64,000 nucleotides of DNA, taken from assembly GCA_015064855.1 (NCBI GenBank), contig SVRK01000004.1:129445-193444 (forward strand). Direction: 5' to 3'. Positions 1,870 to 64,000 of this stretch are shown one piece after another. The notes beneath the pieces are model-generated. The model ran no database searches and had not been told where the DNA came from. It saw only the letters and a program-made list of their open reading frames with translations. A program made the position numbers and the translations under genes. The stretch is from Oscillospiraceae bacterium. GTDB taxonomy: Bacteria; Bacillota; Clostridia; Oscillospirales; CAG-272. Each line of letters begins with the position of its first letter. The stretch's first letter is position 1.

Positions 1870-1920
1870 TTAGCCTTCCCTAGCAGGGAAGGTGTCACGA
1901 AGTGACGGATGAGTAGAGCA
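1870..1920. repeat. Left compound inverted repeat of DUF559 cassette 1
   Basis: TAGCCTTCCCTAGCAGGGAAGGTG, then the small hairpin TCACGAAGTGA, then CGGATGAGTAGAGCAT. Its reverse complement recurs at 2312-2368 with only the middle hairpin different. Confidence 0.9.
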
Positions 1921-33049: not shown

Positions 33050-33125
33050 GCTACTATGGCTCAGTTGGTAGAGCACATCCTTGGTAAGGATGAGGTCATC
33101 GGTTCGATTCCGATTAGTAGCTCCA
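33050..33125 (+). tRNA. tRNA-Thr (anticodon GGT), CCA encoded
   Basis: A hand-folded cloverleaf fits: acceptor GCTACTA/TAGTAGC, D arm GCTC/GAGC, anticodon stem CATCC/GGATG with loop TTGGTAA, and T arm ATCGG/CCGAT with TTCGATT. Confidence 0.9.
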
Positions 33126-33295: not shown

Positions 33296-33552
33296 AGTCA
33301 TTATCTCACCCGAGGGACGAGGGCGGAGAAAAAACGGACGAACACGACCGATAGGTGTACTTGCGTACATCGGAGGAAGTGGTCGTTTGTAGAAATCACA
33401 AGAGGAAAACGCACACCATTCGGTGTGCGTTTTCGACCTTATATTTATTTTATTGGGGATAGCGGACGACCAATGGTCACTCCTACTATATTAGGATGGT
33501 TTGAATGTGAATTTTATGTGATTTCGGTTTTACCCGTTTTCGCTCCCTCTTA
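33296..33552 (-). repeat. ~250-bp composite repeat, inverted copy
   Basis: By eye, its reverse complement aligns along its length with 62112-62360. Shared parts include GAGGGAGCGAAAACGGGTAAAACCGAAATCACA, the GGTCG-type hairpin and the hairpin AAAACGCACACC..GGTGTGCGTTTT. Confidence 0.85.
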
Positions 33553-39147: not shown

Positions 39148-39876
39148 ATGAAGGACGTATTATTTACAGTAAAATCCAACAAGCAAATCGCTAAAATCAC
39201 TTATGAAATGGTGCTTACAGGCGATACAGAGGGAATTAAGGCGGGCGCTTTTGTAAACTTGAAGCTCGACGGCTTTTTCCTACGCCGTCCAATCTCTGTT
39301 TGCGAGGTTGACGGAAATGAATTGACTCTTATCTATAAGGTAGTTGGTAAGGGTACTGAAAAAATGGCAGAAATGACAGGTGGAGAACAAATTTGGACGC
39401 TCACAGGACTTGGTAACGGCTACGATTTATCAAAGAGTGGCGATATGCCAATGCTTGTAGGTGGCGGTGCAGGTGTTCCACCTATGTATGAGCTCTGCAA
39501 GCAACTAGTTAAAGAGGGCAAAAAGCCAAGCGTGGTGCTCGGCTTTGGCGCAAGTGACGAAATCTTTTACGAGGATAAATTCAAGGCTCTTGGTGCTGAC
39601 ACATACGTTACAACAGTTGACGGCTCGTATGGTATAAAGGGCTTCGTTACCGATGCATTTGATAAAATCGACTACACATATATTTACACCTGTGGTCCTG
39701 AGCCAATGCTAAAGGCGGTATATAATAAGAGCATAACAAGCGGTCAATACAGCTTTGAGGAAAGAATGGGCTGTGGCTTTGGCGCTTGTATGGGTTGCTC
39801 ATGCAAAACCAAATACGGAAACAAGAGAATCTGCAAGGACGGACCTGTGCTTATAAAGGAGGAAATCATATGGTAA
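39148..39876 (+). CDS. pyrK: Dihydroorotate dehydrogenase electron-transfer subunit
   Basis: It has an FAD/NAD-binding fold and the C-terminal 2Fe-2S cysteines CGFGACMGCSC...C. Confidence 0.88.
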   Translation: MKDVLFTVKSNKQIAKITYEMVLTGDTEGIKAGAFVNLKLDGFFLRRPISVCEVDGNELTLIYKVVGKGTEKMAEMTGGEQIWTLTGLGNGYDLSKSGDMPMLVGGGAGVPPMYELCKQLVKEGKKPSVVLGFGASDEIFYEDKFKALGADTYVTTVDGSYGIKGFVTDAFDKIDYTYIYTCGPEPMLKAVYNKSITSGQYSFEERMGCGFGACMGCSCKTKYGNKRICKDGPVLIKEEIIW

Positions 39877-40781
39877 GCTTGAAAACAGAGCTCTGTGGAA
39901 TTGAGCTTGATAACCCATTAATTCCTGCCTCGGGTACGTTTGGCTTTGGCTACGAGTTTGCAGAAATTTATGATATAAACTGTCTTGGCACGTTCTCATT
40001 TAAGGGAACAACCAAGGACGCGCGCTTTGGCAATCCAACCCCAAGAATTGCAGAGTGCGAAAACGCTATGATTAACTCGGTTGGACTACAAAACCCGGGT
40101 GTTGAAAACGTTATTAAAAACGAGCTTCCGAAGCTCAGAAAATGCTTTAACAAGCCTGTAATGGCAAACGTTAGCGGATTTTCGATAGAGGAGTACGTAT
40201 ATACAGTAGAAAAGCTTGACAAGGAAGAGGGAATTGGCTGGTTTGAGGTGAACATCAGCTGTCCTAACGTTCACGGAGGAGGTATGAGCTTCGGCACATC
40301 CCCTGAAATGGCGGCGGCGGTAACAAGAGCCGTAAGAGCCGTTACTAAAAAGCCACTTATTATTAAGCTCTCCCCAAATGTAACAGATATAGTTGCAATA
40401 GCAAAGGCGTGTGAGGAGGCAGGTGCTGATGGCATTAGCTTAATTAACACCTTGCTCGGTATGAAGATAGATTTAAAGACCAAAAAGCCTGTAATTGCAA
40501 ATAAAATGGGCGGTTTTTCAGGCCCTGCAATTAAGCCTGTGGCAATTAGAATGGTATATCAGGTATATGATGCGGTTAAAATTCCAATCGTCGGTGGCGG
40601 CGGAGTTTCGTGTGCCGAGGACGTAATTGAAATGATGCTCGCAGGCGCATCGGCGGTTCAAATCGGAGCGCAAAATCTTGTTGACCCAATGGCTTGTCCT
40701 AAAATTATAGCCGACTTGCCAAGGGTTATGGAAAAATATGGTATAAAAAATCTAAAGGATATAATAGGAGGTGCCCACTAA
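39870..40781 (+). CDS. pyrD: Dihydroorotate dehydrogenase 1B catalytic subunit
   Basis: [13 protein letters not shown] and [11 protein letters not shown] are present. A GGAGG RBS precedes the ATG at 39870, which overlaps pyrK by 7 nt. Confidence 0.92.
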
Positions 40782-41479
40782 TGGGAAAGGACGTAATTAT
40801 CGCTTGTGATTTTGCAAGCAAGGAAGATGTATTTAGTTTTCTTGACAAATTTGAAAACGAAAAGCCGTTTGTAAAAATCGGTATGGAGCTATTCAACGCA
40901 GAGGGACCTGAAATTGTACGCGAAATTAAGCGTAGAGGTCATAAAATATTCCTCGACTTAAAGCTTCACGACATTCCAAATACAGTTAAAAAGGCAATGG
41001 CGGTGCTTTCACGCCTTGACGTTGATATGACAAACGTACACGCTAGCGGTACTATTGCTATGATGGAGGCAGCTCTTGAGGGACTAAAACGTGAGGACGG
41101 CACTTGCCCACTTCTTATTGCGGTTACTCAATTAACCTCAACAAGCGAGGAAAGAATGAGAGATGACCTTCTTATTAACGAGCCAATGGATAAGGTGGTT
41201 ATGCACTATGCTCAAAATGCTAAAAAGGCAGGCCTTGCAGGTATCGTTTGCTCACCTCTTGAGGCAGAGAAGGTACATGCTACCTGTGGCAAGGACTTTG
41301 TTACAGTTACCCCGGGTGTTCGTTTTGCTGATGGTGACAAGGGCGACCAGGTAAGAGTTATGACACCTGCCGAGGCAAAGAAGATAGGCTCTGACTACAT
41401 AGTAGTTGGTAGACCAATCACAGCAGCTAGCGACCCTGTTGCAGCATATCGCAGATGCGTAAGCGAGTTTGTTGACTGA
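40781..41479 (+). CDS. pyrF: Orotidine-5'-phosphate decarboxylase
   Basis: IIACDF..., [22 protein letters not shown] and VVGRPIT are present. Confidence 0.93.
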
Positions 41480-41528
41480 TAGCCTCCTTTGTAAAGGGAG
41501 GTGTCGCCATAGGCGACGGAGGGATTTT
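41480..41528. repeat. Left compound inverted repeat of DUF559 cassette 2
   Basis: TAGCCTCCTTTGTAAAGGGAGGT, then the hairpin GTCGCCATAGGCGAC, then GGAGGGATTTT. It starts one base after the pyrF stop, and its inner end supplies the GGAGG RBS of the DUF559 gene. Confidence 0.9.
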
Positions 41529-41530
41529 GT

Positions 41531-41899
41531 ATGAAATATAATCATAACAAAAATATTGTTCCGTTAGCTAAAGAGCTAAGGAAAAATATGACCTCTGAAG
41601 AAAAGCACCTATGGTATGATTTTTTAAGAAAGTATCCTATAAGGTTTTCAAGACAAAAGGTTATAGGAAATTATATAGTAGATTTTTATTGTGCAAAGGC
41701 TAATTTGGTAATAGAGCTTGACGGTTCACATCACGGACTTGAAAAGGAAACTGAAAAGGACGAAAAAAGAACCGAATATATTGAGTCGCTTGGGCTTACG
41801 GTGATAAGAATACCAAACTATGAAATAAAGGACAACTTTTTATATGTTTGCCGTTATATAGATAGCTTGGTGGAAAAATCCCTCCGTCAGCAAAGCTGA
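41531..41899 (+). CDS. DUF559 (Vsr/restriction-endonuclease-like) domain protein
   Basis: 122 aa with LRKNMTSEEKHLWYDFLR...RQKVIGNYIVDFYC...IELDGSHH. It is a paralog of 1935..2303. Confidence 0.85.
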   Translation: MKYNHNKNIVPLAKELRKNMTSEEKHLWYDFLRKYPIRFSRQKVIGNYIVDFYCAKANLVIELDGSHHGLEKETEKDEKRTEYIESLGLTVIRIPNYEIKDNFLYVCRYIDSLVEKSLRQQS

Positions 41900-41922
41900 C
41901 ACCTCCCTTTACAAAGGAGGCT
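41875..41922. repeat. Right compound inverted repeat of DUF559 cassette 2
   Basis: AAAATCCCTCC, then the hairpin GTCAGCAAAGCTGAC, then ACCTCCCTTTACAAAGGAGGCT. It overlaps the last 8 codons and the stop of the DUF559 gene. Confidence 0.9.
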
Positions 41923-41957
41923 TCTGTTTGCAAAAGAGCCTTGAAAAGGAGTTAGAA

Positions 41958-42608
41958 ATGGAAGCATACAAGAGAGAATTTATTGAGTTTTTACAAAACG
42001 CAGGAGTTTTGAAGTTCGGTGATTTTACTGCAAAGAGCGGTAGAAAAATCCCATATTTTATTAACGCAGGTGAGATTAAGACAGGTGAGAACATCGCAAA
42101 ATTGGGCGAGTTCTACGCAAAGGCTTATCTTGACAAGGTAGGCAACAAGAAAACAGCACTTTACGGCCCTGCATACAAGGGTATTTCAATTGCAGTTTCT
42201 GCATCTGTTGCTCTTGCAAAGGAGGGACTAAACCTTCCATTCTTCTTTAACCGTAAAGAGGTTAAGGACCATGGCGAGGGCGGTATGTTCGTTGGCTATA
42301 AGCCGGGGGCAGGTGACGAAATCGTTATTGTTGAGGATGTAATTACTGCCGGCACCGCTATCCGTGAAACTATGGAAATTATGAAGGGCGTTGAGGGCGC
42401 TAAGGTTGTTGCTTGCTTCGTTATGGTTGACCGCAAGGAAAAGGGTCAAGGCGAAAAGGGCGCAATGGTTGAAATCGAGGAGGAATTCGGCTTCCCTGTA
42501 TATTCAGTTGTTGACGTTTACGATATTATCGAGTATCTAGAAGAAGACGAATCAAACGCTGAAAACGTAGCAAGAATTAAGAAATATAGAGAAGTTTACG
42601 GCGCTTGA
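41958..42608 (+). CDS. pyrE: Orotate phosphoribosyltransferase
   Basis: FGDFTAKSGRKIPYFINAG and the PRPP motif IVIVEDVITAGTA are present. An AAAGGAG RBS precedes the ATG at 41958. Confidence 0.9.
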   Translation: MEAYKREFIEFLQNAGVLKFGDFTAKSGRKIPYFINAGEIKTGENIAKLGEFYAKAYLDKVGNKKTALYGPAYKGISIAVSASVALAKEGLNLPFFFNRKEVKDHGEGGMFVGYKPGAGDEIVIVEDVITAGTAIRETMEIMKGVEGAKVVACFVMVDRKEKGQGEKGAMVEIEEEFGFPVYSVVDVYDIIEYLEEDESNAENVARIKKYREVYGA

Positions 42609-42609
42609 T

Positions 42610-42775
42610 GGCAAATAAGGCGCGAGAACGAAAGGCAAAAGGAACTAAATGGTAAAAATGAAGAAATTTGCAAACAAATTTCATTTTAATTGCCTTTCTA
42701 AACGCGACCACTTGTACTGCCGTACTAAGTACGGCGACGACTTCGTGTTCACGCTTTCTCATCACCTTATTCACT
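42610..42775. repeat. REP-like modules between pyrE and pyrB
   Basis: GCGCGAGAACGAAAGGCAAAAGG and GCGACCACTTGTACTGCCGTACTAAGTACGGCGACG (a perfect 7-bp hairpin) resemble modules at 33340-33390, 47700-47750 and 62270-62320. Confidence 0.6.
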
Positions 42776-42803
42776 CATCAATAAAAGCAATTAAGGAGTT
42801 TTT

Positions 42804-43871
42804 ATGAGAAGTCTAATTGACATAAAAGAGCTAAGTGTAGAGGAAATCGACGATTTAGTTGCAACAGCTCTTGATATAATTGATAATCCTAGTAAATACA
42901 GTGAAAAATGCAAGGGCAAGAAGCTTGCGACCTTGTTCTTCGAGCCATCAACCAGAACCCGTCTTAGCTTTGAGGCAGCTATGTATGAGCTCGGTGGAAA
43001 CGTGCTCGGCTTTTCCGACGCGGGCAGCTCGTCAAGTGCGAAGGGCGAGAGCGTAGCGGACACGGCAAAGATGATTTCCTGCTATGCCGATATTATCGCT
43101 ATGCGCCACCCAAAGGAGGGCGCACCGTTTGTTGCGTCAATGAACGCATCCATCCCTGTTATTAACGCAGGTGACGGTGGACACAATCACCCAACACAAA
43201 CACTTGCAGACTTACTCACAATCAAGCGCAAAAAGGGCAGATTTGACAATTTGACGGTTGGTCTTTGTGGCGACCTTAAATTTGGAAGAACCGTTCACTC
43301 ACTTATAAACGCGCTTAATAGATACGAGGGAGTTAAGTTTGTGCTTATTTCTCCCGACGAATTGAAGGTGCCAAGCTATGTAAAGAATGAAATCAGAAAG
43401 GCGGGCAAGCAATTTTACGAAACCAATGATTTGGTAAGCGCAATGCCCGAGCTTGACATTCTTTATATGACAAGAATTCAAAAGGAGCGCTTCTTTAACG
43501 AGGAAGATTACCTACGCTTAAAGGACAGCTATATCCTTGACCCTGAAAAGCTAGAAGGCGCAAAGAGCGATTTGTCAATTATGCATCCGCTTCCGCGTGT
43601 GAATGAGATTAGCGTGAAGGTGGACTCTGACCCACGTGCACACTATTTTGAGCAAGCGCTCAACGGAAAATATATGCGTATGGCACTTATTTTAAAGCTG
43701 CTCGGTGAGAAGGATATAAATAAGGAAGAAAAATCTTCTTATATAAAAAATGAAATTTTCTGCAAAAACCCAAGATGTATAACGTCCTGCGAGCAGGAGC
43801 TTGACCATATTTTCGAGCTTACTGAAAACGGCGAGCTTAGATGTATTTACTGCGAAGCAAAAGCTAAGTAG
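42804..43871 (+). CDS. pyrB: Aspartate carbamoyltransferase catalytic chain fused to a PyrI-type zinc domain
   Basis: The ATCase motifs [13 protein letters not shown] and HPLPR are present. About 50 extra C-terminal residues follow, reading [13 protein letters not shown]...LRCIYCE. Confidence 0.9.
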
Positions 43872-43989
43872 GGCTGTGACACAGGGGCAAAACCAAAAAT
43901 AAAAGGCGAAAAAGAGGTACATCGTTTGTCGGTGAGCCTCTTTTGTTTTTGTAAGGTTGAAAAACTTCGTTTTTCCTCAAAAGCTAATG

Positions 43990-44335
43990 CTTTTTGTTTT
44001 CGGGTGGGGCGACCCCACCCCTACGGTGTGTCGTTAATTTTGTTTGTCATTTGTAGGGGAGCATATTATGCTCCCGCTTTTTTCGGGAAGAGCAAGCCCC
44101 CCCTTAGCAGGGCGCAAACCTTTTGTCGCTTTGCGACATTTCCCTTAGCAAGGGAATCTCCCCTACGGTGTACCTCCAATTTGTGCTGTCATTCTGAACG
44201 CAGTGAAGAATCCCAAAGAGAGCCTTCGGCAGGCTCAGGATGACGGTGTACCGATAATTTGAATTATCATTTGTAGGGGCGACCATTGGTCGTCCGTTTG
44301 CACCACATCCGTCGCCTATGCGACGCGGTGCGGGG
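43990..44335. repeat. Cluster of at least six different REP-like hairpin modules
   Basis: The modules are GGGTGGGGCGACCCCACCC; GGGAGCATATTATGCTCCC; the GCGCAAACCTTTTGTCGCTTTGCGACATTTCCCTTAGCAAGGGAA module (also at 48288-48340); GTCATTCTGA...TCAGGATGAC; GGGGCGACCATTGGTCGTCC; and CGTCGCCTATGCGACG. Confidence 0.85.
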
Positions 44336-44481
44336 AAAGAATTTTTGGCTACTTGCAAAAAAATTTAAAAAATGTTAAAATAAATTGTAACCTTTTGGGT
44401 AAAAAATCCGTTTTTATAGGTGAAGGTACCTTAAAGTTCTTTTGAGATGTGTCAAATTGAGTGACATAAGGGGGGAGAAGA

Positions 44482-45033
44482 ATGGACGAAAAGGGAATAG
44501 TTCGGCTATTTTTATCGCGTGATGAAAGCGCGCTTGAAGAAGCTGAAAAGCAATATGGTAAGCTATGCCATTATATTGCCAACAATATTTTAAATTCGCC
44601 TCTTGATGCACAAGAGTGTGTAAATGATACGCTTTTGCGCGCGTGGAATTCCATTCCTCCTGCAAAGCCGAAAAACCTCGGTGCTTATCTATCAAAAATA
44701 GCAAGAAATTTGGCTATTGACAGGTATAACAGAGAGAAAAGTCAAAAGCGCGGGGCAAATACCGAGCCACTTTCTCTTGACGAGCTTGAAGGATGCTTGT
44801 CCGACAACTCATCATTTGTTGACGAGGCGATTTTAAAGGAATGCATAAACTCATTTTTGCGCTCACTTTCAAAGGAAAAAAGGATTGTTTTCGTGCAGAG
44901 GTATTTCTATAACGCAAAAATCTGCGACATAGCAAAAAACAACAATCTGACCGAAAACAACGTTAAGGTAAAATTGCTCCGATTGCGTAAGGCTTTCGAG
45001 GAGCACGTAAAGAAATACGGATTAGGAGGTTAA
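44482..45033 (+). CDS. ECF-type sigma-70 family RNA polymerase sigma factor
   Basis: 183 aa. Region 2 (ECVNDTLLRAWN) and a region 4 HTH (ICDIAKNNNLTENNVKVKLLRLRK) are present. Confidence 0.8.
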   Translation: MDEKGIVRLFLSRDESALEEAEKQYGKLCHYIANNILNSPLDAQECVNDTLLRAWNSIPPAKPKNLGAYLSKIARNLAIDRYNREKSQKRGANTEPLSLDELEGCLSDNSSFVDEAILKECINSFLRSLSKEKRIVFVQRYFYNAKICDIAKNNNLTENNVKVKLLRLRKAFEEHVKKYGLGG

Positions 45034-45034
45034 T

Positions 45035-47539
45035 ATGAAAAAGAAAAATCTCGACAAAATGTTTAATTTAATTGACGACGATATTCTTTCAGAGGCAGAC
45101 CCAACGAAGCCGAAAATCAAGAGTGTATCTAAATTCGGCTGGATGCAAATTGTGGCTGGGGCTGCGTGCTTGATTTTAACACTAAATATGCTTGTTTTTG
45201 CGCCGTTTCTATTTATGAATAATGATGGAAATGACGACACAGACCCACCGTCAACGGGCGTTATCGACTTGCCAAGCTCGGATACGGAAACGGATTCAAA
45301 TAAGCCGTCGGACACTGAATCAAGTGAGACAACCGACACGGATTCAAGCGTACCAAACGAGCCGTCGGACACGGACTCGAATGAGTCAAATAAGCCAAAT
45401 GACACGGACTCAAACGAACCAAGTAAGCCAAATGACACGGACTCAAATGAACCAAGTAAGCCAAATGACACAGACTCAAACGTACAAAACAAGCCCGAGG
45501 AACCGGGCAAGGACGACGATAAGGTGAAATTTGAAACGCTTGGAGGTATAACAAGCATTAAAATACCTGTACCGGGCAAGGGCACACATACAGTAACGTT
45601 GTCCGCACCCTTGACCAACGCGCCAAGCCAATATAAGGACATTATAGCTTCGATGAAGGATATTGCAAAGGGCGAAATTTTCTTCTCACCTGCCAGTGGA
45701 GATTTATCCGACAAAAACGAAGAGTCTATGGAAGATATGAAGGATCAAATAGACGACGCACTCGCAGATCCAGACCTGAAGGACGAATTTATTAAAGAAG
45801 AGCAAGATAAATACGAGGAAACGACGAACAACCAGGTACAGGGCATTATTGAGGGCGATATTATCAAGCGCTCAAGCAAGTACGTTTACTATCTATCCGG
45901 CTCAACCTTAAAAATTTACCCACTCAACGGCATGGAAACAACAGTTTTGACGGAGTTTGACCTAAAAGACTATATAAATGCAATAGAAAAGTCACTTAAA
46001 ATACCATATAATCCACCAGAAAACGAGGAGCTTAAGGACAGAATAGATGAAATAATAGATGTTGCATACAATTCTGAAATGTTCCTCTCAACCGACTGCA
46101 AGACCATAACCATTATAGTGGAGCACTATATTAACCAATATTATTATCCCAATAACGATGATGAAGGCGTTGTAGACGTTTGGGGAGAAGAATATATAGA
46201 AAATAGCAGAAGCGGTAGATATACCTCGCTGATTTCTTTAAACGTTGAGGACCCCGAAAACGTATATCTAAACGATATAACCACGCTTTTCGGTGCTTAT
46301 GAAAGTGCAAGACTCGTTAACGGAGAATTTTTGGTGTTCACAAAGTTCACTCCTCGTTTGGGCGAGCTTGTAATTCCACAGTATAGAGACGGTGAAAGCT
46401 TTGAGTATATCGAGCTTGAAAACATACATTCACCCGAAAAGTACACAAACCACACCTATTTATTATCGTTTATAATAGATTCTGAAAGCTACGAGGTTTT
46501 AAGCAGTGGCGCATATGCCTCGTTCGACGGAGAAATTTACGTGACGGGCGACAATATTTACGTAACACGCGAGTATGAGAGCGAGGAAAGAGTAGAGGAA
46601 AAATATCCTATCTTTAAGGACGGCATAATAGACGGAGACCCACTTAATCCTGAAAACATTGTCGGATACCGCCAAAAGATAACTGTAATAAGAAAAACCG
46701 CAACCGAGATTTTAAGAATTGATTATTCGGGCGGTAGCTTTATAAGACGTGGCACGGTCGTTGTTGACGGATATATCAAGGACAGATATTCAATGAGTGA
46801 AAACCAAGAATTCCTTTACGTTGTAACAACGGTTGGTGGCAATTCCTCTAAAACGGAAATCATTTACGAGGACGGCGAGAAAGAGGGAATATTAAAGGAT
46901 CTTTGGGACACAAGCGAAAAGAGAAGCGCAAGCATATATATCATTGATTTAGAAACAATGGAAGAAATAAGCTCGGTTGAGCGCTTTGCCCCCGATGGTG
47001 AAACTGTTCGCTCCGTTAAATTCGACGGCTACTACGCTTACGTTTGCACCGCTGTGCAGATTATAGACCCTGTGTTCTTCTTTGACCTAACTAACCCATA
47101 CAAAATAACTTATAGTGACACGGGCACAATCCCAGGCTTCTCTGTGAATCTAATAGAGCTTCCAAATGGCGAGCTTCTCGGCATAGGAACCGACGGAAAT
47201 GGCAACGTTAAGTTTGAAATCTACAAAAAGGGCGAAAACAACACAGTAGATATAGTTGCTACCTATTTAGTAGAGGCTACCTCCTATGCGTCTGACTATA
47301 AGGCAATATATATAAACAGGGAAAAGGGGCTCTTTGGAGTCGGTATCAAGAACCGGAAAAAGTCAAACTATGACGGATATGTTATGGTACAGTATCTCGA
47401 CGGATATTTCTCCTTGGTGTTCAAAACGGAGCTCAAGGGAACAAATGATTCCAAAAGAGTTGTATATGACGAGGAAAATGACCTATTCTATCTCTTTGCG
47501 AGCAACGATTTTAAGGTGTTTATTCCAACAATCGAATAG
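45035..47539 (+). CDS. Membrane-anchored beta-propeller domain protein (PF09826-like), putative anti-sigma partner
   Basis: It starts 1 nt after the sigma gene's stop codon. It has a short cytoplasmic N-terminus, one TM segment (WMQIVAGAACLILTLNMLVFAPFLF), a Ser/Asp/Pro-rich repeat linker, and the sequence TNNQVQGIIEGDIIKRSSKYVYYL typical of the beta-propeller family. Confidence 0.75.
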   Translation: MKKKNLDKMFNLIDDDILSEADPTKPKIKSVSKFGWMQIVAGAACLILTLNMLVFAPFLFMNNDGNDDTDPPSTGVIDLPSSDTETDSNKPSDTESSETTDTDSSVPNEPSDTDSNESNKPNDTDSNEPSKPNDTDSNEPSKPNDTDSNVQNKPEEPGKDDDKVKFETLGGITSIKIPVPGKGTHTVTLSAPLTNAPSQYKDIIASMKDIAKGEIFFSPASGDLSDKNEESMEDMKDQIDDALADPDLKDEFIKEEQDKYEETTNNQVQGIIEGDIIKRSSKYVYYLSGSTLKIYPLNGMETTVLTEFDLKDYINAIEKSLKIPYNPPENEELKDRIDEIIDVAYNSEMFLSTDCKTITIIVEHYINQYYYPNNDDEGVVDVWGEEYIENSRSGRYTSLISLNVEDPENVYLNDITTLFGAYESARLVNGEFLVFTKFTPRLGELVIPQYRDGESFEYIELENIHSPEKYTNHTYLLSFIIDSESYEVLSSGAYASFDGEIYVTGDNIYVTREYESEERVEEKYPIFKDGIIDGDPLNPENIVGYRQKITVIRKTATEILRIDYSGGSFIRRGTVVVDGYIKDRYSMSENQEFLYVVTTVGGNSSKTEIIYEDGEKEGILKDLWDTSEKRSASIYIIDLETMEEISSVERFAPDGETVRSVKFDGYYAYVCTAVQIIDPVFFFDLTNPYKITYSDTGTIPGFSVNLIELPNGELLGIGTDGNGNVKFEIYKKGENNTVDIVATYLVEATSYASDYKAIYINREKGLFGVGIKNRKKSNYDGYVMVQYLDGYFSLVFKTELKGTNDSKRVVYDEENDLFYLFASNDFKVFIPTIE
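45392..45490 (+). repeat. Three tandem 33-bp in-frame coding repeats (KPNDTDSNEPS)
   Basis: AAGCCAAATGACACGGACTCAAA(C/T)GAACCAAGT starts at 45392, 45425 and 45458. More degenerate copies lie upstream from about 45290. Confidence 0.9.
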
Positions 47540-47555
47540 GATGGGGTGTCATATT

Positions 47556-48047
47556 AAGGCACAACCGCAAATCGCAAAAACAATAACACAGCAAAAAGGG
47601 GTGTATCCAAAAGGTACGCCCCGCTTGTATAAGATAAGGTTGAAAAGCTAACGCTTTTCTTCATTTGGTGCGAGTTGCTTTCGCCGTTTGCTGAACTCTC
47701 GACGTACGCAAGTACGCCTTCGGTCGCAAACGACGAATTCTGCTCTTAATCTGCCTACCCCGATGGGCGTAAGGCACAACCGCAAATCGCAAAAACAATA
47801 ACACAGCAAAAAGGGGTGTATCCAAAAGGTACGCCCCGTTTGTATAAGATAAGGTTGAAAAGCTAACGCTTTTCTTCATTTGGTGCGAGTTGCTTTCGCC
47901 GTTTGCTGAACTCTCGACGTACGCAAGTACGCCTTCGGTCGCAAACGACGAATTCTGCTCTTAATCTGCCCACCACGATAGGCGTAAGACACAACCGCAA
48001 ATCGCAAAAACAATGGGGGTGTATCCAAGGGATACGCCCTTTATTGT
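47556..48047. repeat. Tandem repeat, 215-bp unit, about 2.3 copies
   Basis: Units start at 47556, 47771 and 47986 with AAGGCACAACCGCAAATCGCAAAAACA. The first two units are nearly identical, and the third is truncated and deleted. A solo 5' fragment lies at 48968-48993. Confidence 0.92.
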
Positions 48048-48141
48048 ATAACGAAAACCACGCGATGGTCGCGTGGTTCAAAAGAGGTTAACCGATGATG
48101 GAAAAGTAAACAAGAGAAAGAGGCAAGATATATTTTTAGAA

Positions 48142-48359
48142 AGGCTCCTTTGAAAAGGGAGCTGTCAGCTTTGCTGACTGAGGGATTATCTCTTAAAATT
48201 CAACTATATTGAAAGGCAAAATGTAAGGAGTAGAATATAGTTTATATAAATAAATCCCTCCGTCTGCCTATGGCGGTCCCCCCCTCTTAGCGAGGCGCAA
48301 CCCTTTTGTCGCGTTGCGACATTTCCCCTCACAGGGGAATCTCCCTTTACAAAGGAGGC
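48142..48359. repeat. Gene-less cassette with the same compound inverted-repeat ends as DUF559 cassette 2
   Basis: The left end is at 48142-48187 (GGCTCCTTTGAAAAGGGAGC, GTCAGCTTTGCTGAC, TGAGGGATT), followed by a 64-bp AT-rich core. The right end AAATCCCTCCGTCTGCCTATGGCGG is at 48252-48276, followed by an inserted module. CTCCCTTTACAAAGGAGGC lies at 48341-48359. Confidence 0.8.
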
Positions 48360-50341: not shown

Positions 50342-51961
50342 ATGAAAATCAGAATTCCCGACTACGTCTCTTTAATTCACGATGAGAAGGACGAATTTTA
50401 TAACGACGAATTAAATTCCGTTTTGAAAAACGAAAACACAGAGGTTTCATTTAAGGAAAATGGAGACTACTTAACGGTATATGCAACTACCTATAACAAG
50501 GGCGCAAAATACGTAATGCTCCGTTGGAATTACGATGCGCGCAAGGACGTTAAGGTTCTTGGCGATGCCTACGAGCGCGGATATGGAGATTTGCAGTGGC
50601 AAACAATACGCCCTGAAAGAATGATGCCTTGGTATATAGCGGTATCTAACGGAAGCGATATGGATTTTGATTACTCGAAAAGACTTACCGAGTGCTTTGG
50701 CGTTATGGTTCAGCCAAATGCATTTGCCACATGGCAATACGACACGAAGGGCGTTACCCTTTGGCTTGATATAAGAAACGGCGGTAACGGCACACAGCTA
50801 GGCGGTAGACTTCTTGAATGCGCAACGGTTGTGTTTAAGGAATATGAAAGGGTTAGCGCATACAAGGCAGTAAAAGATTTTTGCCGTGCGCTCTCGCCTA
50901 ACCCGTATTTGCCAAGTCATAAGGTTTATGGCTCGAACAACTGGTATTACGCATATGGAAAAAGCTCTCACGAGGAGATTGTTGCGGATACAAAATTAGT
51001 TGCCAAGATGTGCAACGGACTTGAGAATATCCCCTATATGGTAATTGACGACGGATGGCAACCAAACCCAACCGACGCGCCCTGGGACATAGGAAACGAG
51101 CGCTTCCCTAATATGAAGAAGCTTGCGGACGAGATGCGTGCGCTCGGCACACGACCGGGTATTTGGGTGCGCTACCTTGTAAACGGCAAGGACAACGAGC
51201 CTCGCAAGATAGAAAAGCCCGAGGAGTGGTATCTTGAAAGAAACAAAAAGGTGTTTGACCCTTCCCACCCAGAGGTACTTAATTACGTTGCCGAAATCAC
51301 CGAGACTCTAACTAAAAAATGGGGCTATGAATTAATCAAGCACGACTTTTCCACCTTTGATATTTTCGGTTGGTGGGGCTTTGATATGCAACACACCGTT
51401 ACTTATGGCGGTTGGTCATTCTACGATAAGACAAAGACAAGCGCAGAGATTGTTAAAAACTTTTATAGGGTTGTAAAGGACCACGCAAACGGTGCAGTTA
51501 TTATCGGCTGCAACTGTGTTGGACATCTTTGTGCGGGACTACATCAGTTAAACCGCACAGGTGATGACACAAGTGGCTTTGAATGGTCAAGAACAGCCAA
51601 GATGGGTGTAAATACGCTCGCATTTAGAAACGCGCAAAACGGCTCGTTCTTTATGGCTGATGCCGACTGCGTTGGAATTACAGGCGCAATTTCTTGGGAG
51701 CAAAACAGAGAATGGCTTATGGCTCTTTCTCGTAGTGGCTCACCGCTATTTGTTTCCTGTAAGCCGGGTGTATTAAACGACGAGGAATTAAACGAGCTAC
51801 GCGAGGCTTATATAGTTGCATCATATCAAGCGGACGAATTTATTCCGCTTGACTGGATGGAAACAACAACACCTGAAAAATATTTATTAAACGGAAAAGA
51901 AATAACGTTTAATTGGTACACAAAGCGCGGAAACGAAAGCTTTCTTGATATAGCAAGATAA
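50342..51961 (+). CDS. Clan GH-D (GH36/GH27-like) alpha-galactosidase-like hydrolase
   Basis: VIDDGWQ, FPNMKKLADEMRALG and LIKHDFS are present. An AAGGAG RBS precedes the ATG at 50342. Confidence 0.55.
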   Translation: MKIRIPDYVSLIHDEKDEFYNDELNSVLKNENTEVSFKENGDYLTVYATTYNKGAKYVMLRWNYDARKDVKVLGDAYERGYGDLQWQTIRPERMMPWYIAVSNGSDMDFDYSKRLTECFGVMVQPNAFATWQYDTKGVTLWLDIRNGGNGTQLGGRLLECATVVFKEYERVSAYKAVKDFCRALSPNPYLPSHKVYGSNNWYYAYGKSSHEEIVADTKLVAKMCNGLENIPYMVIDDGWQPNPTDAPWDIGNERFPNMKKLADEMRALGTRPGIWVRYLVNGKDNEPRKIEKPEEWYLERNKKVFDPSHPEVLNYVAEITETLTKKWGYELIKHDFSTFDIFGWWGFDMQHTVTYGGWSFYDKTKTSAEIVKNFYRVVKDHANGAVIIGCNCVGHLCAGLHQLNRTGDDTSGFEWSRTAKMGVNTLAFRNAQNGSFFMADADCVGITGAISWEQNREWLMALSRSGSPLFVSCKPGVLNDEELNELREAYIVASYQADEFIPLDWMETTTPEKYLLNGKEITFNWYTKRGNESFLDIAR

Positions 51962-51974
51962 AGAGGGAGTAACT

Positions 51975-52067
51975 ATGTTAATTAAAAAGAACCCCGTTTT
52001 AACCGGATTTCATCCCGACCCTAAAAGGCTCCTTTGTGCAAAGGGAGCTGTCAGCTGTGCTGACTGA
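51975..52067 (+). other. Relic 5' end of a GH43 gene (16 codons) reading into a repeat and stopping
   Basis: A GAGGGAG RBS precedes the ATG at 51975. MLIKKNPVLTGFHPDP mirrors the start of the live gene at 52092. The frame then enters the palindromic repeat and reaches TGA at 52065-52067. Confidence 0.7.
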
Positions 52068-52073
52068 GGGATT
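52027..52073. repeat. Solo left-type compound repeat end
   Basis: GGCTCCTTTGTGCAAAGGGAGC, GTCAGCTGTGCTGAC, TGAGGGATT. The architecture is the same as 41480-41528 and 48142-48187. Confidence 0.88.
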
Positions 52074-52091
52074 GAGAAAAAAGGAGAAATT

Positions 52092-53696
52092 ATGTTAGTT
52101 AGAAAAAATCCTGTTTTGACAGGCTTTCATCCCGACCCTTCTATTTTGGCGGTGGGCGATGACTATTACCTTGCGACCTCAACCTTTCAATGGTTCGGGG
52201 GAGTAGAATTATACCATTCAAGGGATATGGTAAACTGGGAGCAGCTACCTTGTCCACTTACAAGAACCTCACAGCTTGATATGCAGGCAAATCCGAATTC
52301 AGGCGGAATATGGGCGCCGTGCCTATCATACTCGGACGGAGTTTTTTACCTAATTTACACAAACGTGAAAAACTTCCACGGTATTTTTAAGGATACACAT
52401 AATTATCTTGTTACCACAACCGATTTGTACGGCGAGTGGAGTGAGCCGATTTATTTGAACTCCAGTGGCTTTGACCCGTCGCTTTTCCACGATGACGACG
52501 GCAAAAAATATCTTGTCAATATGCGTTGGGACCACAGAATGGAGCACCACGATTTTGCAGGAATTTTAATGCAAGAATATGACCCGAAGGCGAAAAAACT
52601 GGTTGGCGAAATCAAGACAATATATAAGGGCACGGAAATAGGCGGTACGGAAGCACCGCATCTATACAAAAAAGACGGCTATTACTATTTGATGGTTGCC
52701 GAGGGTGGCACAATGTATAACCACGGTGTGCGCTTGGCTCGCTCAAAAAACATTTGGGGCGAGTATGAAAGTGACCCACAGCCACTTTTAACAACAAGAA
52801 ATAATCCCGAAAAATATATTCAAAGAACAGGGCACGCTTCGTACATAGAGGCATCAAACGGTCAAGGCTACGTTGCTTACCTTGGCGCTCGACCATTGCG
52901 CGAGAAAAAGCTCGTTGCCTTTGCAGAGGGATGCTCGATTTTAGGTCGTGAAACCTGTATTGCCCCTGTAAAGTGGGAAAACGGATGGTTACGCCTTGAA
53001 AACGGCGGAGAAGTTCCACCCGAGGAGTATTTTTCGACGCTTGACGAGGTAAAATTTCCACCAAAGCCCGAAAAAGACGTATTTGACGGTGAAAAACTAC
53101 CACTTCAATATAAAACGTTAAGATTGCCGCTTGACAGAATGGGAACCTTAAATGAGAGAAAGGGATACCTACGCCTTTACGGTATGGAGGCAATTACCTC
53201 TCCAAACGAGCAAAGCTTGGTTGCAAGAAGGCTTGACGCTTTTTCTGTTGAAGCAACGACGGAGCTTGAGTTTTGTCCAAAAACGTTCCAAGAAATGGCA
53301 GGACTTACCGTTTTTTATGATACCTATAATTTCTTCTATCTCTATATGTCACACGATGAGGAAAGCGGTGAAAACTGCCTAAGAGTTTTGGTGCGTGACA
53401 GCCTAAAATTTTACAACCCTATAAAAGAATATAGAGTTTTGATAGGAAAAACGGAAAAGGTATGGCTACGCGCTCAGGTCGAGAGATTGAATTTAGAGTT
53501 TTTCTATTCACTTGACGGAGAGAATTATATGCCGATTGGCGGAAGGCTTGACTGCTCCAATTTATCTGACGAGGCGTATGGCTTAATAGGTCACGAGGGA
53601 CACACGGGCACGTTTATCGGTATGTGCTGTCAAGACCTGACAGGGTTAAGAAATTACGCAGATTTTAGAAGCTTTGAATATAAGGTGAAAAAGTAA
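52092..53696 (+). CDS. GH43 beta-xylosidase / alpha-L-arabinofuranosidase
   Basis: NPVLTGFHPDPSILAVGDDYYLATSTF, WAPCLSY and EAPHLYKKDGYYYL are present, followed by a C-terminal beta-sandwich. Confidence 0.88.
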   Translation: MLVRKNPVLTGFHPDPSILAVGDDYYLATSTFQWFGGVELYHSRDMVNWEQLPCPLTRTSQLDMQANPNSGGIWAPCLSYSDGVFYLIYTNVKNFHGIFKDTHNYLVTTTDLYGEWSEPIYLNSSGFDPSLFHDDDGKKYLVNMRWDHRMEHHDFAGILMQEYDPKAKKLVGEIKTIYKGTEIGGTEAPHLYKKDGYYYLMVAEGGTMYNHGVRLARSKNIWGEYESDPQPLLTTRNNPEKYIQRTGHASYIEASNGQGYVAYLGARPLREKKLVAFAEGCSILGRETCIAPVKWENGWLRLENGGEVPPEEYFSTLDEVKFPPKPEKDVFDGEKLPLQYKTLRLPLDRMGTLNERKGYLRLYGMEAITSPNEQSLVARRLDAFSVEATTELEFCPKTFQEMAGLTVFYDTYNFFYLYMSHDEESGENCLRVLVRDSLKFYNPIKEYRVLIGKTEKVWLRAQVERLNLEFFYSLDGENYMPIGGRLDCSNLSDEAYGLIGHEGHTGTFIGMCCQDLTGLRNYADFRSFEYKVKK

Positions 53697-60584: not shown

Positions 60585-62114
60585 ATGAAAAAAATACTTG
60601 GTGTTGAGTTCGGCTCAACAAGAATTAAATCAGTTTTGATAAATGAAAAGGGCGAGGTTTTGGCAAGCGGAGCGCACGACTGGGAAAACAAGCTCGAAGG
60701 CGGCTTTTGGACATACTCACTTGAGGATGTTTGGGCAGGCATGCAGGATTCATATAGCGACCTTGTTAAAAACTATGGCAAGAAAATAGATAGCCTTGAT
60801 GCTATCGGTGTTTCCGCTATGATGCACGGCTATCTTGCCTTCGATAAAAACGATAATTTGCTTGTTCCTTTTAGAACCTGGCGTAATACAACAACTGCCG
60901 AGGCACAAATTGAATTGACTCGTGAAATCAGCTTCAATATGCCACAAAGATGGAGTGGCACACACTTCTATCAAGCTGTTTTAAACAAAGAGGAGCACGT
61001 AAAGGACGTTGCCTTCTTAACTACCTTGGCAGGCTACGTGCATTGGAAGCTAACAGGTAAAAAGGTGCTTGGTATTGGCGATGCTGCCGGAATGTTCCCA
61101 ACAATAGAGAACGAATATGATAAGGAAAAATTAGAAATCTATAACGAGCTTCTTAAAAAGCACGGAGTTGATAAAAAATTAGAGGATTTACTCCCAACAC
61201 CTTTAATGGCAGGCGAAAACGCAGGTATCTTAACCAGTGAGGGCGCACTCTTACTTGACCCAACAGGCACACTGAAGTGTGGCGCAATTATGTGCCCACC
61301 TGAGGGAGATGCGGGTACTGGTATGGTTGCAACAAACGCGGTTAGAGTAAAAACGGGTAACGTATCCGCCGGCACTAGCGCATTTGCAATGGTAGTTCTT
61401 GAAAAGCCACTTTCTAAGGTAAGCACAGAGATTGACGTTGTTGCAACTCCGTCAGGAAAAACTGTTGCAATGGTACACGCAAATAACTTCACATCCGAGA
61501 TTAACGCGTGGGCATCACTATTTATGGAGGCTATCGAGCTTGCGGGTGGTTTAATAGGCAAGGGCAAGCTATACGATTTGCTTTATGAGATTTCATTAAA
61601 GAGCGATTCAGACGTTGGCGGTCTTGTTGGCTACAACTTCCTATCAGGTGAACCACTTGTTGGTATGGAAAAGGGAATTCCGATGGTAATGCGTAAGCCT
61701 GACGGTAAAATGACACTTGCTAACTTTATGCAAATGCAATTATATTCTGCACTTGGTGCTATGAGCATAGGTATGGAAATTCTTTCCGAGGAAAACGTTG
61801 AAATTGAGGCAATTTGCGGTCATGGTGGATTCTTTAAATATCCATTTGTCGGCGCAAATGCAATGAGCGCGGCGCTTTCGGCACCTGTTACAGTTATGAA
61901 AAACGCAGGTGAGGGCGGAGCTTGGGGTGTTGCACTCCTTGCCCTTTACGCAACAGAAAATGACGTAACCCTTGAAGACTTCCTTGACAAGCAATTTGCT
62001 ACTTGCGAGAAGGAAACAACCATCGCGTCCGACGAGGAAAAAGCGAAATTTGCAAGCTTTATGGCAGAGTACAAGAGGTATTTAACTGTTGAAAAACTAG
62101 CAACAGAAGTGTGA
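60585..62114 (+). CDS. FGGY-family carbohydrate kinase (xylulokinase-like)
   Basis: LGVEFGSTRIKSVLI, GDAGTGMVATNA and the C-terminal sequence HGGFFK are present. An AAGGAGG RBS precedes the ATG at 60585. Confidence 0.75.
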   Translation: MKKILGVEFGSTRIKSVLINEKGEVLASGAHDWENKLEGGFWTYSLEDVWAGMQDSYSDLVKNYGKKIDSLDAIGVSAMMHGYLAFDKNDNLLVPFRTWRNTTTAEAQIELTREISFNMPQRWSGTHFYQAVLNKEEHVKDVAFLTTLAGYVHWKLTGKKVLGIGDAAGMFPTIENEYDKEKLEIYNELLKKHGVDKKLEDLLPTPLMAGENAGILTSEGALLLDPTGTLKCGAIMCPPEGDAGTGMVATNAVRVKTGNVSAGTSAFAMVVLEKPLSKVSTEIDVVATPSGKTVAMVHANNFTSEINAWASLFMEAIELAGGLIGKGKLYDLLYEISLKSDSDVGGLVGYNFLSGEPLVGMEKGIPMVMRKPDGKMTLANFMQMQLYSALGAMSIGMEILSEENVEIEAICGHGGFFKYPFVGANAMSAALSAPVTVMKNAGEGGAWGVALLALYATENDVTLEDFLDKQFATCEKETTIASDEEKAKFASFMAEYKRYLTVEKLATEV

Positions 62115-62360
62115 GGGCGCAGGATAGGTGTAAAACCGAAAACACACTAAATTTACAGATAAACTAGCCCAACACAGTAGGGGCGACCATTGGTCGTCCG
62201 CTATCACCAATAAAGTAATATAAGGTCGAAAACGCACACCGTTCGGTGTGCGTTTCCCTCTTGTGTTTTCTATGTGCGACCAAGGGCTCTACCGTACACC
62301 AGTACGCCGACGTTCCCTTGCTCGCGCATTTTTCCTACCTCCCTTGTCCCTCAGGAGAAG
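62112..62360 (+). repeat. ~250-bp composite repeat, direct copy
   Basis: It begins at the kinase TGA and contains GGGGCGACCATTGGTCGTCC and the hairpin AAAACGCACACCGTTCGGTGTGCGTTT. An inverted homolog lies at 33296-33552. Confidence 0.88.
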
Positions 62361-62530
62361 TGAGGGCGCAGGGTAAATGAGGGCGCAGGATAGGTGTAAA
62401 ACCGAAAACACACTAAATTTATAGATAAACTATCCCAACACAGTAGGGGCGACCATTGGTCGTCCGCTATCACCAATAAAGTAATATAAGGTCGAAAACG
62501 CACACCGTTCGGTGTGCGTTTTCCTCTTTT
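62361..62530 (+). repeat. Tandem re-duplication of the first ~150 bp of the composite repeat
   Basis: TGAGGGCGCAGG occurs at 62361, and again at 62378 followed by a near-identical copy of 62112-62260. The terminal hairpin at 62495-62522 can serve as a bidirectional terminator. Confidence 0.88.
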
Positions 62531-64000
62531 ATTTATTAAAAGTAATTCTTAATTCAAAATTGCGTTCGCCTTGGTATAGTGTATAGTCAAGACAGTAGCA
62601 GATTTGGTCATAAGAGCCGTTTTCGTCTGGGAACTGTGCGGAGTATGGAACCTCGATAACCTTTAAAACGGAATTTCTTGAACCAACTAAAACAGTATCG
62701 CCAAGTGTTGCCTTGTTGCCGTCAACTACCGGCTTTGTAGTGGTGACAAAGCGCTCTGTTGCAATGGTTGGTGCGTTGAATTTGAATTTATCCTGCATTA
62801 TGATTTCGTCATCTCTGAAATAGAAGGTTCTTTCAGCCTTGTCAAGAGATTCAACTCCGTAGCCCGCGGTAAAGTCCATATAAACGGAGTCGTTTTCCTT
62901 GTCATATTTAGCAAAAACAATCTCGCGTCTAACGCCATCTTGGGGAATTCCATTAAAGAATGGAATATTGTGAGAAAGGGCTGACGGATTGAAGTTTGAA
63001 TATCTGTCGTTTCCGTGGTAGTTCTTGGTTTTAGCGGTTGGTCCCGGATAACCAAAGTCACAGAGAATTTGTTTGTTGTTTCTTGCCAAAATAAAGGAAG
63101 CAACGTCATTGTGGTTATGGCTCTCGCCATTGTCACCACCCTTACAGGTAAAGCCGTAATTGTCTGTGCGCTTTGTAAAATACGCGCAGTTTTCAGAGTA
63201 AAATGAGCCGTTTTCAAGCTTATCGGTCACATTTTCCTTCTTGAAGTAGAGAAGCGTACGAAGACCAAAGGAGAAATGAACGTAGCTGAATAGGTTAACG
63301 TCAAGCATAGGAAGCTTTTGTACGTCGTTTGGATAAACCTCGCGAAGCATATGTGCAAGACCATACCAGTAAACCTCTTTAAAATTACAGTCACTATATG
63401 AGGCTACAACCTTTGGTTGTAGATACATTCTTTGAATATAAGTAGAAATTGCTCTTACCTTATCGCGCTTGAACCAGTCGACCTCGCCATTTGTAAACTC
63501 ACGCTCGAGCATAGCGTAGTTGCAGAAGAAGCCGAAGCCAAATCCCCAATATGCAGTACCCTCAACACACATACCGTCCTCACGGTAAGGAGCTAGGTAA
63601 CACTCCATTGCATCGTGCAAGCGCTTTTGGTATTTGTAATATAAATCTGGTGCTTCATACATAAGAACCGCGCCGACAGATCCGTTACAAACCGCCGTCC
63701 AGTTGTTGTCGTGCGTTTCCCAGAAGAATTTTCTGTTTACGTATGGCTCAATAGTTCTGCGTCTTATCTCCGCTGTCATACGGTCAACTAAAAGCTGTGG
63801 GAATCTTTCCTTAAATAAATGCTTAATTTCCGCCATTGAAAAACCAACGGAGCAAGCAAAAATATCAAGAAGTCCGGGGTCGTAGTCTGATGGCTTTCTT
63901 TGATAGTAGTCATTATAGTGGCCGAGTGGCGCCCAAGCATACTCGTTACAGTAAGCCCAAACAACCTGTAAAAGATTGTTGTAATATTCCTCGTTATCAG
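62529..64000 (-). CDS. Heparinase II/III-like family protein (5' end outside window)
   Basis: The frame stays open from the listed Met at 63836 to the window end. The motif HNHNDVASFIL is present, with an alpha/alpha toroid-like N-terminal part. Confidence 0.6.
   Translation of the reverse strand, partial: DNEEYYNNLLQVVWAYCNEYAWAPLGHYNDYYQRKPSDYDPGLLDIFACSVGFSMAEIKHLFKERFPQLLVDRMTAEIRRRTIEPYVNRKFFWETHDNNWTAVCNGSVGAVLMYEAPDLYYKYQKRLHDAMECYLAPYREDGMCVEGTAYWGFGFGFFCNYAMLEREFTNGEVDWFKRDKVRAISTYIQRMYLQPKVVASYSDCNFKEVYWYGLAHMLREVYPNDVQKLPMLDVNLFSYVHFSFGLRTLLYFKKENVTDKLENGSFYSENCAYFTKRTDNYGFTCKGGDNGESHNHNDVASFILARNNKQILCDFGYPGPTAKTKNYHGNDRYSNFNPSALSHNIPFFNGIPQDGVRREIVFAKYDKENDSVYMDFTAGYGVESLDKAERTFYFRDDEIIMQDKFKFNAPTIATERFVTTTKPVVDGNKATLGDTVLVGSRNSVLKVIEVPYSAQFPDENGSYDQICYCLDYTLYQGERNFELRITFNK

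Follow-up and report, generated by a model that had tools for sequence, protein, structure and literature searches.

The genes pyrF and pyrE of a pyrimidine biosynthesis operon are separated by a small gene for a DUF559 protein, enclosed by two inverted repeats, in a 64,000-nt stretch of the genome of an Oscillospiraceae bacterium (assembly GCA_015064855.1, contig SVRK01000004.1, positions 129,445–193,444; this whole stretch is the window, and positions are counted from its first letter). A diverged second cassette lies within 40 kb of it, and several other loci have two cassettes within 10 kb. The question that this locus raises is whether such a unit is a mobile element with its own nuclease, a passenger gene between repeats spread by something else, a gene with RNA control elements, or a host nuclease gene with incidental palindromes. 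We consider it somewhat more probable than all else, at roughly 0.55, that the unit belongs to a family of small selfish cassettes, similar to miniature inverted-repeat transposable elements (MITEs) and to doublets of repetitive extragenic palindromes (REPINs), with a nuclease for which the arms of the unit itself are the probable target.

The unit between pyrF (40781–41479; Pfam OMPdecase) and the ATG of pyrE at 41958 (Pfam Pribosyltran), called cassette 2 in the following, comprises about 460 nt and consists of a left arm (41481–41528, + strand), the DUF559 open reading frame (ORF; 41531–41899, + strand, 122 aa), a right arm (41875–41922, − strand) and a short tail of 21 nt, TCTGTTTGCAAAAGAGCCTTG (41923–41943, + strand). 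The arms, 48 nt each, are inverted repeats with 88% complementarity, and they score 53.9 (left) and 57.4 bits (right) with our arm covariance model R1. From outside to inside, each arm is composed of a hairpin A, a hairpin B and an inner block. Hairpin A reads CCTCCTTTGTAAAGGGAGG and occurs at 41483–41501 (+) and 41902–41920 (−), with about 0.01 matches expected by chance in the window; hairpin B reads GTCGCCataGGCGAC in the left arm (41503–41517) and GTCAGCaaaGCTGAC in the right arm (41886–41900), and the differences between the two are compensatory changes. The left inner block, GGAGGGATTTT, contains the Shine–Dalgarno (SD) sequence GGAGGG (41518–41523), 7 nt 5′ of the ATG at 41531, and the right arm, which starts inside the eighth codon from the end of the ORF, encodes the last 7–8 codons: its inner block encodes KSLRQQS-stop, and the stop codon TGA (41897–41899) lies within hairpin B. 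An earlier note on this DNA had proposed that the left repeat provides the SD sequence and the right repeat the C-terminus with the stop codon, and both assignments hold here and across dozens of species. The end of the unit had to be shifted by about 21 nt beyond the right arm to 41943; the tail is counted as part of the unit because 41481–41943 aligns as one single block with the cassette of a related locus (L004, 2951–3413), where it occupies a different site.

The other copy, cassette 1, is an inserted block of 530 nt (1863–2392, + strand) with the same layout and different arm sequences: a left arm (about 1871–1923), an ORF of likewise 122 aa (1935–2303), a right arm (about 2310–2368) and a tail up to 2392. 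Its hairpin CCTTCCCTAGCAGGGAAGG is found at 1874–1892 (+) and 2347–2365 (−), with 0 matches expected by chance. Equal protein lengths and diverged repeats had been recognized from the beginning, whereas the identity of the two proteins, estimated at about 45%, amounts to 51% over 110 aa. The common architecture that had been claimed applies to the layout but not to the overlap of arm and C-terminus, which is specific to cassette 2, as the right arm of cassette 1 starts 3′ of the stop codon.

The encoded protein matches Pfam DUF559 (PF04480) with E = 1.5e-28 and 99.2 bits, compared with a curated cut-off of 20.6, and also NCBIfam PRK09767, the family of Escherichia coli YcjD. DUF559 is the sole domain that Pfam finds in the 122 residues, with no NUMOD or helix-turn-helix (HTH) domain and no recognised transposase domain of the DDE, serine, tyrosine or HUH type. 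Searches with phmmer retrieved NGO0050 (PDB 3hrl; E = 1e-13) and, weakly, the catalytic domain of I-Bth0305I (3r3p; E = 0.066). The AlphaFold model (predicted local distance difference test score, pLDDT, of 76) is matched by Foldseek to 3hrl, to 3r3p (target-normalised template-modelling score of about 0.8), to the nuclease domains of PvuRts1I/AbaSI, to Vsr and to RAP-domain mitoribosomal proteins, and the predicted fold is that of a Vsr-type α/β nuclease of the EDxHD branch of PD-(D/E)XK enzymes. The residues E23/E24, D51, E62, D64, H68 and D77 are invariant in 17 sequences and probably map onto E25/D51/H69/D97 of Vsr and the EDxHD motif of I-Bth0305I, the catalytic residues described for these enzymes (PMC3239194). 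I-Bth0305I, a homing endonuclease, works as a dimer and cleaves a pseudopalindromic site (PMC3239194). Among four cassettes in pyr operons, dN/dS values (ratios of nonsynonymous to synonymous substitution rates) of 0.04–0.18 demonstrate purifying selection, which, together with the invariant residues, argues that the gene is being kept as an active protein.

More than 8000 homologues of the 122-aa protein are detectable, and the species-representative genomes, one for each species, gave at least 599 pattern hits, of which 597 encode DUF559 relatives. For the survey, 80 loci were kept, mainly from uncultured Clostridia/Oscillospirales of ruminant and other guts, and most of the surveyed loci are metagenome-assembled fragments. 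About 150 relatives in different species, with unrelated flanking genes, share an anatomy in which hairpin A is followed by a covarying hairpin B, then by the inner block and by an interior of 349 nt, this being the distance between the arms in most cases; the architecture is common to most of 87 cassettes from about 80 species. The arms themselves are alike in nearly all cassettes. The left-arm consensus, AAGCCTCCCTTGTGTAAAGGGAGG-TG-(hairpin B)-GGAGGGATTGT, lies immediately 5′ of the ATG, and the right-arm consensus, given as reverse complement, is AAGGCTCCCTTGTGTAAAGGGAGC-TG-TCAGCgaaGCTGAC-TGAGGGATTGT and encodes the conserved C-terminus QSLSQLR-stop. From one of the 80 loci to the next, the neighbouring genes mostly show no relationship. 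By a crude test, with gene orientation taken from raw ORFs, 65 of 81 upstream genes are co-directional, with their ends 40–150 nt 5′ of the ATG, and the downstream orientation is mixed. The cassette occupies many unrelated intergenic sites, usually just 3′ of the stop codon of a co-directional gene, and close relatives differ in whether they carry it.

Alignment of 65 distinct arms showed that 91% of the cells pair in the two-hairpin structure, as compared to 41–55% in slid controls, and six of the seven pairs of hairpin B have changes on both sides. Hairpin A is closed by a C-G pair if the arm is a left one and by a G-C pair if it is a right one. Therefore, each arm has been selected to fold on itself and is not merely kept identical to its partner. 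Median protein identity is 67%, third codon positions are 42–45% identical, and the inner block and the whole of hairpin A, loop included, reach 94–99% in the same comparisons, a value that is biased upward, as the arms were chosen by a consensus expression. In the main clade, the arms remain almost invariant while the proteins drop to about 60% identity, which suggests discrete arm classes under strong constraint rather than a gradual pairwise co-evolution. Other clades have their own arms: relatives of cassette 1 in metagenomes carry a parallel but different arm, AGCCTTCCCCttgaGGGGAAGG-TG-(hairpin B)-GGATGAGGTGT, and a termite-gut clade (41–48% identity) carries AAGCCTCCTTTTgAAAGGAGG ... GGAGGATTGT. 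In a cross-tabulation of arm type against protein clade for 162 cassettes, type A2 was confined to the cassette-2 clade (79 of 84 typed), A1 to the cassette-1 clades (38 of 46) and A3 to the termite clade (10 of 10), with no cross-type combination among the 162. The earlier idea of co-evolving nuclease/repeat pairs thus agrees with an arm type that tracks the clade without exception, but this correlation is no proof of cognate recognition, because physical linkage alone would yield it.

Some further observations came from the survey. One protein clade has, 3′ of the right arm, a conserved block of about 135 nt that is rich in hairpins (TTTTATGTTCACCTATGACTTGTCAATTTTCCTGACAAGCACTGCATTTGTG...GAAAACTGTCCTTTAGAG) and occurs in at least 11 species with unrelated flanking genes (L015:10396–10540, with equivalents in L010, L011, L012, L016, L018, L022, L027, L028, L035 and L060), and a weaker motif, AAATTCCAATTT..CGAGAAA, is found about 30 nt 5′ of the left arm in the same clade; in L018, an inserted doublet separates the block from the cassette. 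Typical arms also occur in metagenome-assembled genomes labelled Anaerolineaceae (Chloroflexota; L052, L054, L075 and L078), by cross-phylum transfer or by mis-binning. A phage origin was considered and rejected, as IMG/VR relatives are few among the matches listed (at least three) and all of them lie at contig ends.

That the unit is mobile is seen most clearly for cassette 1. In the related loci L186 and L187, whose upstream proteins are 92% and 90% identical to that of the window, a methionine-gamma-lyase-family gene and rlmH overlap at ATGCTAA, which represents a clean empty site. In the window, the 530-nt block sits exactly at this overlap, supplies a new stop codon on the left and a 24-nt tail ahead of the rlmH ATG, and has thus parted two overlapping, translationally coupled genes. 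The empty site has no arm sequence in either relative, and therefore the arms and the ORF came together as one unit. Homing into existing arm doublets is, with such an armless site, disfavoured as the sole mechanism.

Precise insertion with presence/absence polymorphism is thus seen for cassette 1, and the pattern at cassette 2 is one of replacement. The exact PyrF, DUF559 and 414-aa proteins of the window retrieved only the same arrangement, with an identical cassette 2 between pyrF and pyrE on 23 contigs, and the empty site of cassette 1 came from slightly diverged relatives. L004, which is 93–99% identical to the window in this region and belongs to roughly the same species, has a 92%-identical cassette between pyrE and pyrB and a hairpin-array spacer between pyrF and pyrE. 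Likewise, L091 and L092 carry the cassette (protein 84% identical) between pyrE and pyrB, and in L009 it lies between pyrF and pyrE (83%), nested amid extra arms. No DUF559 ORF is present at either position in L176, L177 and L178 (PyrE 97–98% identical), and an arm doublet without ORF is found between pyrE and pyrB in L176, L178 and L179. The proposed insertion into the operon is therefore correct in that the cassette is no fixed operon part, being absent or relocated in relatives, but the spacer was replaced and not interrupted: no clean empty form between pyrF and pyrE was found among the relatives compared, in contrast to the clean one at cassette 1.

The spacer between pyrF and pyrE in relatives is an array of about 6–9 short, sequence-variable hairpins with TGAAATG/ATTCATG-like motifs between them (L176:1790–2000, L178:1808–2000, L092:2114–2291, L004:2134–2278, L177:1829–2000 and L009:8620–8700), and its first hairpin covers the pyrF stop codon. 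This array looks like the ancestral state; it might have a regulatory function as RNA or represent a further family of repeats. A comparison of 39347–45430 of the window with L004 gave a mosaic identity of 93.3% for pyrD/pyrF, 92.2% for the cassette, 98.7% for pyrE, 94.1% for pyrB and 98.9% downstream, with synonymous divergence (dS) of 0.012 for pyrE and 0.54 for pyrF. The breakpoints coincide with the repeat-filled spacers, and the mosaic suggests recombination tracts that may end at these elements. The pyrE–pyrB spacer of the window (42620–42709) contains a different inverted repeat of considerable length (GCGCGAGAACGAAAGGCAA / TTGCCTTTCTAAACGCGAC), which encloses a palindrome, and in L176 a GCGAGAACGG..CAAAATGG module is found 5′ of the arms, so that the pyr spacers are mosaics of several small modules. 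Two PyrE homologues, P0121 (328 aa) and P0157 (278 aa), are far longer than 216 aa and may be read-through or fusion calls over a cassette or spacer.

Copies without ORF, as doublets, solo arms and arrays, share genomes with the cassettes, in the window and beyond. The arm covariance model finds four strong copies in the window, two of which flank the cassette-2 ORF, and the others lie at 48141–48187 and 52025–52073; cassette-1 arms and some degenerate copies are matched weakly. The first belongs to a decayed cassette with an internal deletion and the cassette-2 arm type (48141–48358, − strand), identified by the arm model and by reading of the sequence, in which both arms are kept, about 18 nt of the ORF start are left with a mutated ATG, and the left-type arm is broken by another two-hairpin module. 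This module, CCCCCC.TTAGC.GGGCGCAA.CCTTTTGTCGC.TTGCGACATTTCCC...GGGAATCTCCC, occurs at 44097–44162 and, as the copy that interrupts the arm, at 48280–48345 (86% identical); the arm model matches it weakly, and it may be a distant arm class. The second is a solo arm of the right-arm type (52025–52073, + strand), the top match in the window with 63 bits for R1. It lies between two 66-nt copies (51957–52022 and 52074–52139, 80% identical) that correspond to the ribosome-binding site and the first 16 codons of the gene downstream, and the upstream copy reads into the arm and ends there; the arrival of the arm seems to have gone along with a duplication or replacement of the 5′ end of the gene. Across 81 loci, the covariance model detected 259 arms. 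By nhmmer classification, 142 arms flank ORFs and 96 do not, and the latter comprise about 20 convergent ORF-less pairs, of which at least nine are tight doublets with spacers of 14–37 nt, and 54 solo or tandem copies; L070 contains entire arm arrays. The doublets in L070 and L176 keep the asymmetry of left-type and right-type arms. Other intergenic repeats of the window (47555–48039, 62112–62534 and 33354–33533) include a tandemly repeated 215-nt unit (98% identity, with part of a third copy) and a 157-nt unit that is repeated 266 nt apart (97%), with inverted relatives about 29 kb away, near a tRNA gene (33050–33122).

These ORF-less arms raise the alternative that the arms are REP-like host or selfish repeats that are spread by another enzyme, such as a REP-associated tyrosine transposase (RAYT) or IS200-type enzyme or another transposase, or by recombination alone, with DUF559 as a passenger that became fixed within one doublet of repeats. 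Arms that occur in arrays and as solo copies would be expected in this case, as would intergenic regions that are mosaics of several other hairpin modules, and neither the very small size of the protein nor the lack of any target-site duplication seen argues for a transposition enzyme of its own. However, the register of arms with SD sequence and C-terminus and the 349-nt interior are kept in all three arm types and in clades whose proteins share as little as about 45% identity, which points to a long-standing unit and not to repeated capture, and cassette 1 entered an armless site as a complete unit. We therefore regard a passenger role as unlikely, although it is the strongest of the competing explanations.

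A further alternative concerns the level at which the arms act. No promoter or terminator was called at the arms (41480–41943), and thus read-through from pyrF is the likely source of transcription; the expression of pyrE would not obviously be blocked by cassette 2. In the minimum-free-energy fold of the cassette RNA, the left arm pairs with the right arm (z = −8.3), the alternative being local hairpins, and such a pairing would mask the SD sequence. The right arm of cassette 2 ends with an SD-like AAGGAGG in hairpin A that is followed 9 nt later by a TTG (41928) in frame with pyrE, and in cassette 1 a GGAAGG is followed 11 nt later by a TTG (2375) in frame with rlmH; these TTGs may help to restore translation of the downstream gene, or they could be due to chance. 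Rfam at gathering thresholds found only tRNA in the whole window, and with permissive thresholds nothing relevant and no intron family in 41300–42100 and in L015, including its block of about 135 nt. A pyr attenuator or terminator was rejected, as there was no PyrR-type Rfam match and no terminator call in 41480–41943, and an OMEGA-like RNA-guided system of right arm and tail was rejected as well, since such a system would need a much larger protein and the tail travels as part of the unit rather than deriving from the flank.

Nevertheless, the arms might act mainly as RNA, either as 5′ and 3′ untranslated elements for the translation or stability of the DUF559 mRNA or for insulation in host operons, and DUF559 might be an RNA-processing nuclease that cuts hairpins. 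Compensatory changes in both hairpins, the pairing of the left-arm SD sequence with the right arm, the co-directional position in operons with no promoter or terminator call, and the Foldseek matches to RAP-domain mitoribosomal proteins are all consistent with this. A role as RNA nucleases has reportedly been proposed for eukaryotic Vsr-like RAP/FASTK proteins, one title (PMC11879112) naming FASTKD4 a Vsr-like mRNA regulator. However, the arms are reverse-complementary including their loops, so that the loops differ on one RNA strand, a symmetry that DNA-level recognition predicts, and ORF-less doublets in either orientation as well as the insertion polymorphism require mobility at the DNA level anyway. 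A predominantly RNA-based function is thus improbable to us, slightly more so than the passenger role, and RNA and DNA roles of the arms are not mutually exclusive. Finally, an ordinary host repair or defence nuclease flanked by incidental terminator- or REP-like palindromes, with which the strong purifying selection, weak PADLOC matches to nuclease domains of methyl-directed restriction enzymes and the persistence in the pyr operon across species would agree, is very improbable in view of the recurrence of the arm–ORF architecture in about 150 cassettes at unrelated loci, the clean and polymorphic insertions, the absence of terminator calls at the arms and the absence of any defence-system neighbours seen.

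We thus return to the selfish cassette with its own nuclease, for which the following model is proposed. The DUF559 gene would have no promoter of its own and would be transcribed by read-through from the upstream gene, here pyrF. Translation would start from the left-arm SD sequence, which base pairing to the right arm could mask, with low expression as the result. The nuclease would recognize the palindromic or hairpin arms of its own class and cut there, probably as a dimer on a palindrome of about 20 bp or on an extruded hairpin, and repair or rejoining would then copy or move the whole unit without target-site duplication. The ORF-less doublets would be deletion derivatives, possibly mobilised in trans, like REPINs by RAYTs.

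Several points weigh against this model. Recognition and cleavage of the arms and the copying mechanism are all steps that we infer from sequence, and the covariation of the hairpins suits RNA structure as well as it suits DNA. With 122 aa and no separate DNA-binding domain, the protein is very small for a transposase. Neither 70 flank pairs nor the clean empty site of cassette 1 revealed a target-site duplication, with the true ends blurred by the tails in both comparisons, and the 70 flank pairs contained no consistent target motif beyond an A-rich left and a T-rich right flank. The block of about 135 nt in one clade means that the arms may not be the true ends everywhere. Cassette 2 replaces the seemingly ancestral hairpin-array spacer between pyrF and pyrE with no clean split, and the cassette has been kept in the pyr operon across several species; therefore, its mobility is infrequent.

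Beyond this, it is conceivable, and for now only tentatively proposed, that DUF559 cassettes constitute an unrecognised class of autonomous mobile elements, in which a Vsr-fold nuclease of about 120 aa as the sole encoded protein recognises its own two-hairpin arms and drives the copying or transposition of the unit and of its REPIN-like ORF-less copies. If so, the DUF559 family, for long without an explanation, would gain a function that might extend to E. coli YcjD, and the cassettes would be among the smallest autonomous mobile elements, with an enzyme fold that is not known to act in this way alone. DUF559 is a large family, and its pairing with structured inverted arms and ORF-less copies suggests a selfish-element nuclease with cognate repeats, for which the cassette arms offer a directly testable substrate. 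The cassettes also reshape operons and are situated at borders of recombination mosaics between strains. We found no description of a DUF559-repeat cassette in the literature, where our coverage omits most subscription journals, so that earlier work may exist.

How does the cassette compare with known systems? Like MITEs and insertion sequences with terminal inverted repeats, it has terminal inverted repeats, internally deleted non-autonomous copies and many sites; unlike these, it has no DDE or other transposase recognised by Pfam and no detected target-site duplication, and its arms are conserved as stem-loops. IS200/IS605 elements resemble it in their subterminal hairpin ends, the lack of target-site duplication, the small size and an asymmetric tail beyond one hairpin, but they lack inverted repeats at their ends and use an HUH transposase. 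Integron attC sites were rejected on anatomy alone, as there are two arms per ORF and the sites are scattered across the genome. The uncharacterised E. coli YcjD and Neisseria NGO0050 belong to the same DUF559 family. Like the cassettes, ycjD (L184; K-12 NC_000913.3, 1351200–1351860) adjoins a co-directional operon on its downstream side, 67 nt 3′ of sapF, but it is a single-copy gene with no evident two-hairpin arms on its flanks, and its relation to repeats has been covered in part. Its GTG start lies under a perfect 17-bp hairpin, and its stop codon falls within an inverted partial copy (80% complementary) of a dispersed repeat that has a median of 16 sites in each E. coli genome. A stretch of about 40 nt from the 3′ end of ycjD is duplicated downstream, and the ycjD ends are present in only about 61% of 5426 complete genomes.

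Closer relationships exist to two other systems. With EDxHD homing endonucleases such as I-Bth0305I, the cassette shares a homologous catalytic fold and the nature of a selfish nuclease gene; in contrast to them, it resides in neither an intron nor an intein (Rfam found no intron family), is intergenic rather than inside a target gene, lacks an N-terminal NUMOD/HTH domain, and has its own structured inverted arms and ORF-less derivatives. With the REPIN–RAYT system, as described in PMC3479197, PMC8266576 and PMC5581495, it shares dispersed extragenic palindromes that occur as singlets and inverted doublets, a nuclease gene flanked by inverted repeats, and a repeat class that fits the gene clade. 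Unlike a RAYT, however, the cassette enzyme is a predicted 122-aa Vsr-fold PD-(D/E)XK protein and not an HUH/Y1 (IS200-like) transposase; its gene is multi-copy and itself mobile, with sites that differ among relatives, whereas the RAYT gene is single-copy and vertically inherited; and its repeats overlap the SD sequence and the C-terminus of the gene. In conclusion, the cassette works most like a combination of REPIN–RAYT and a free-standing homing endonuclease gene, and it fails defining features of both.

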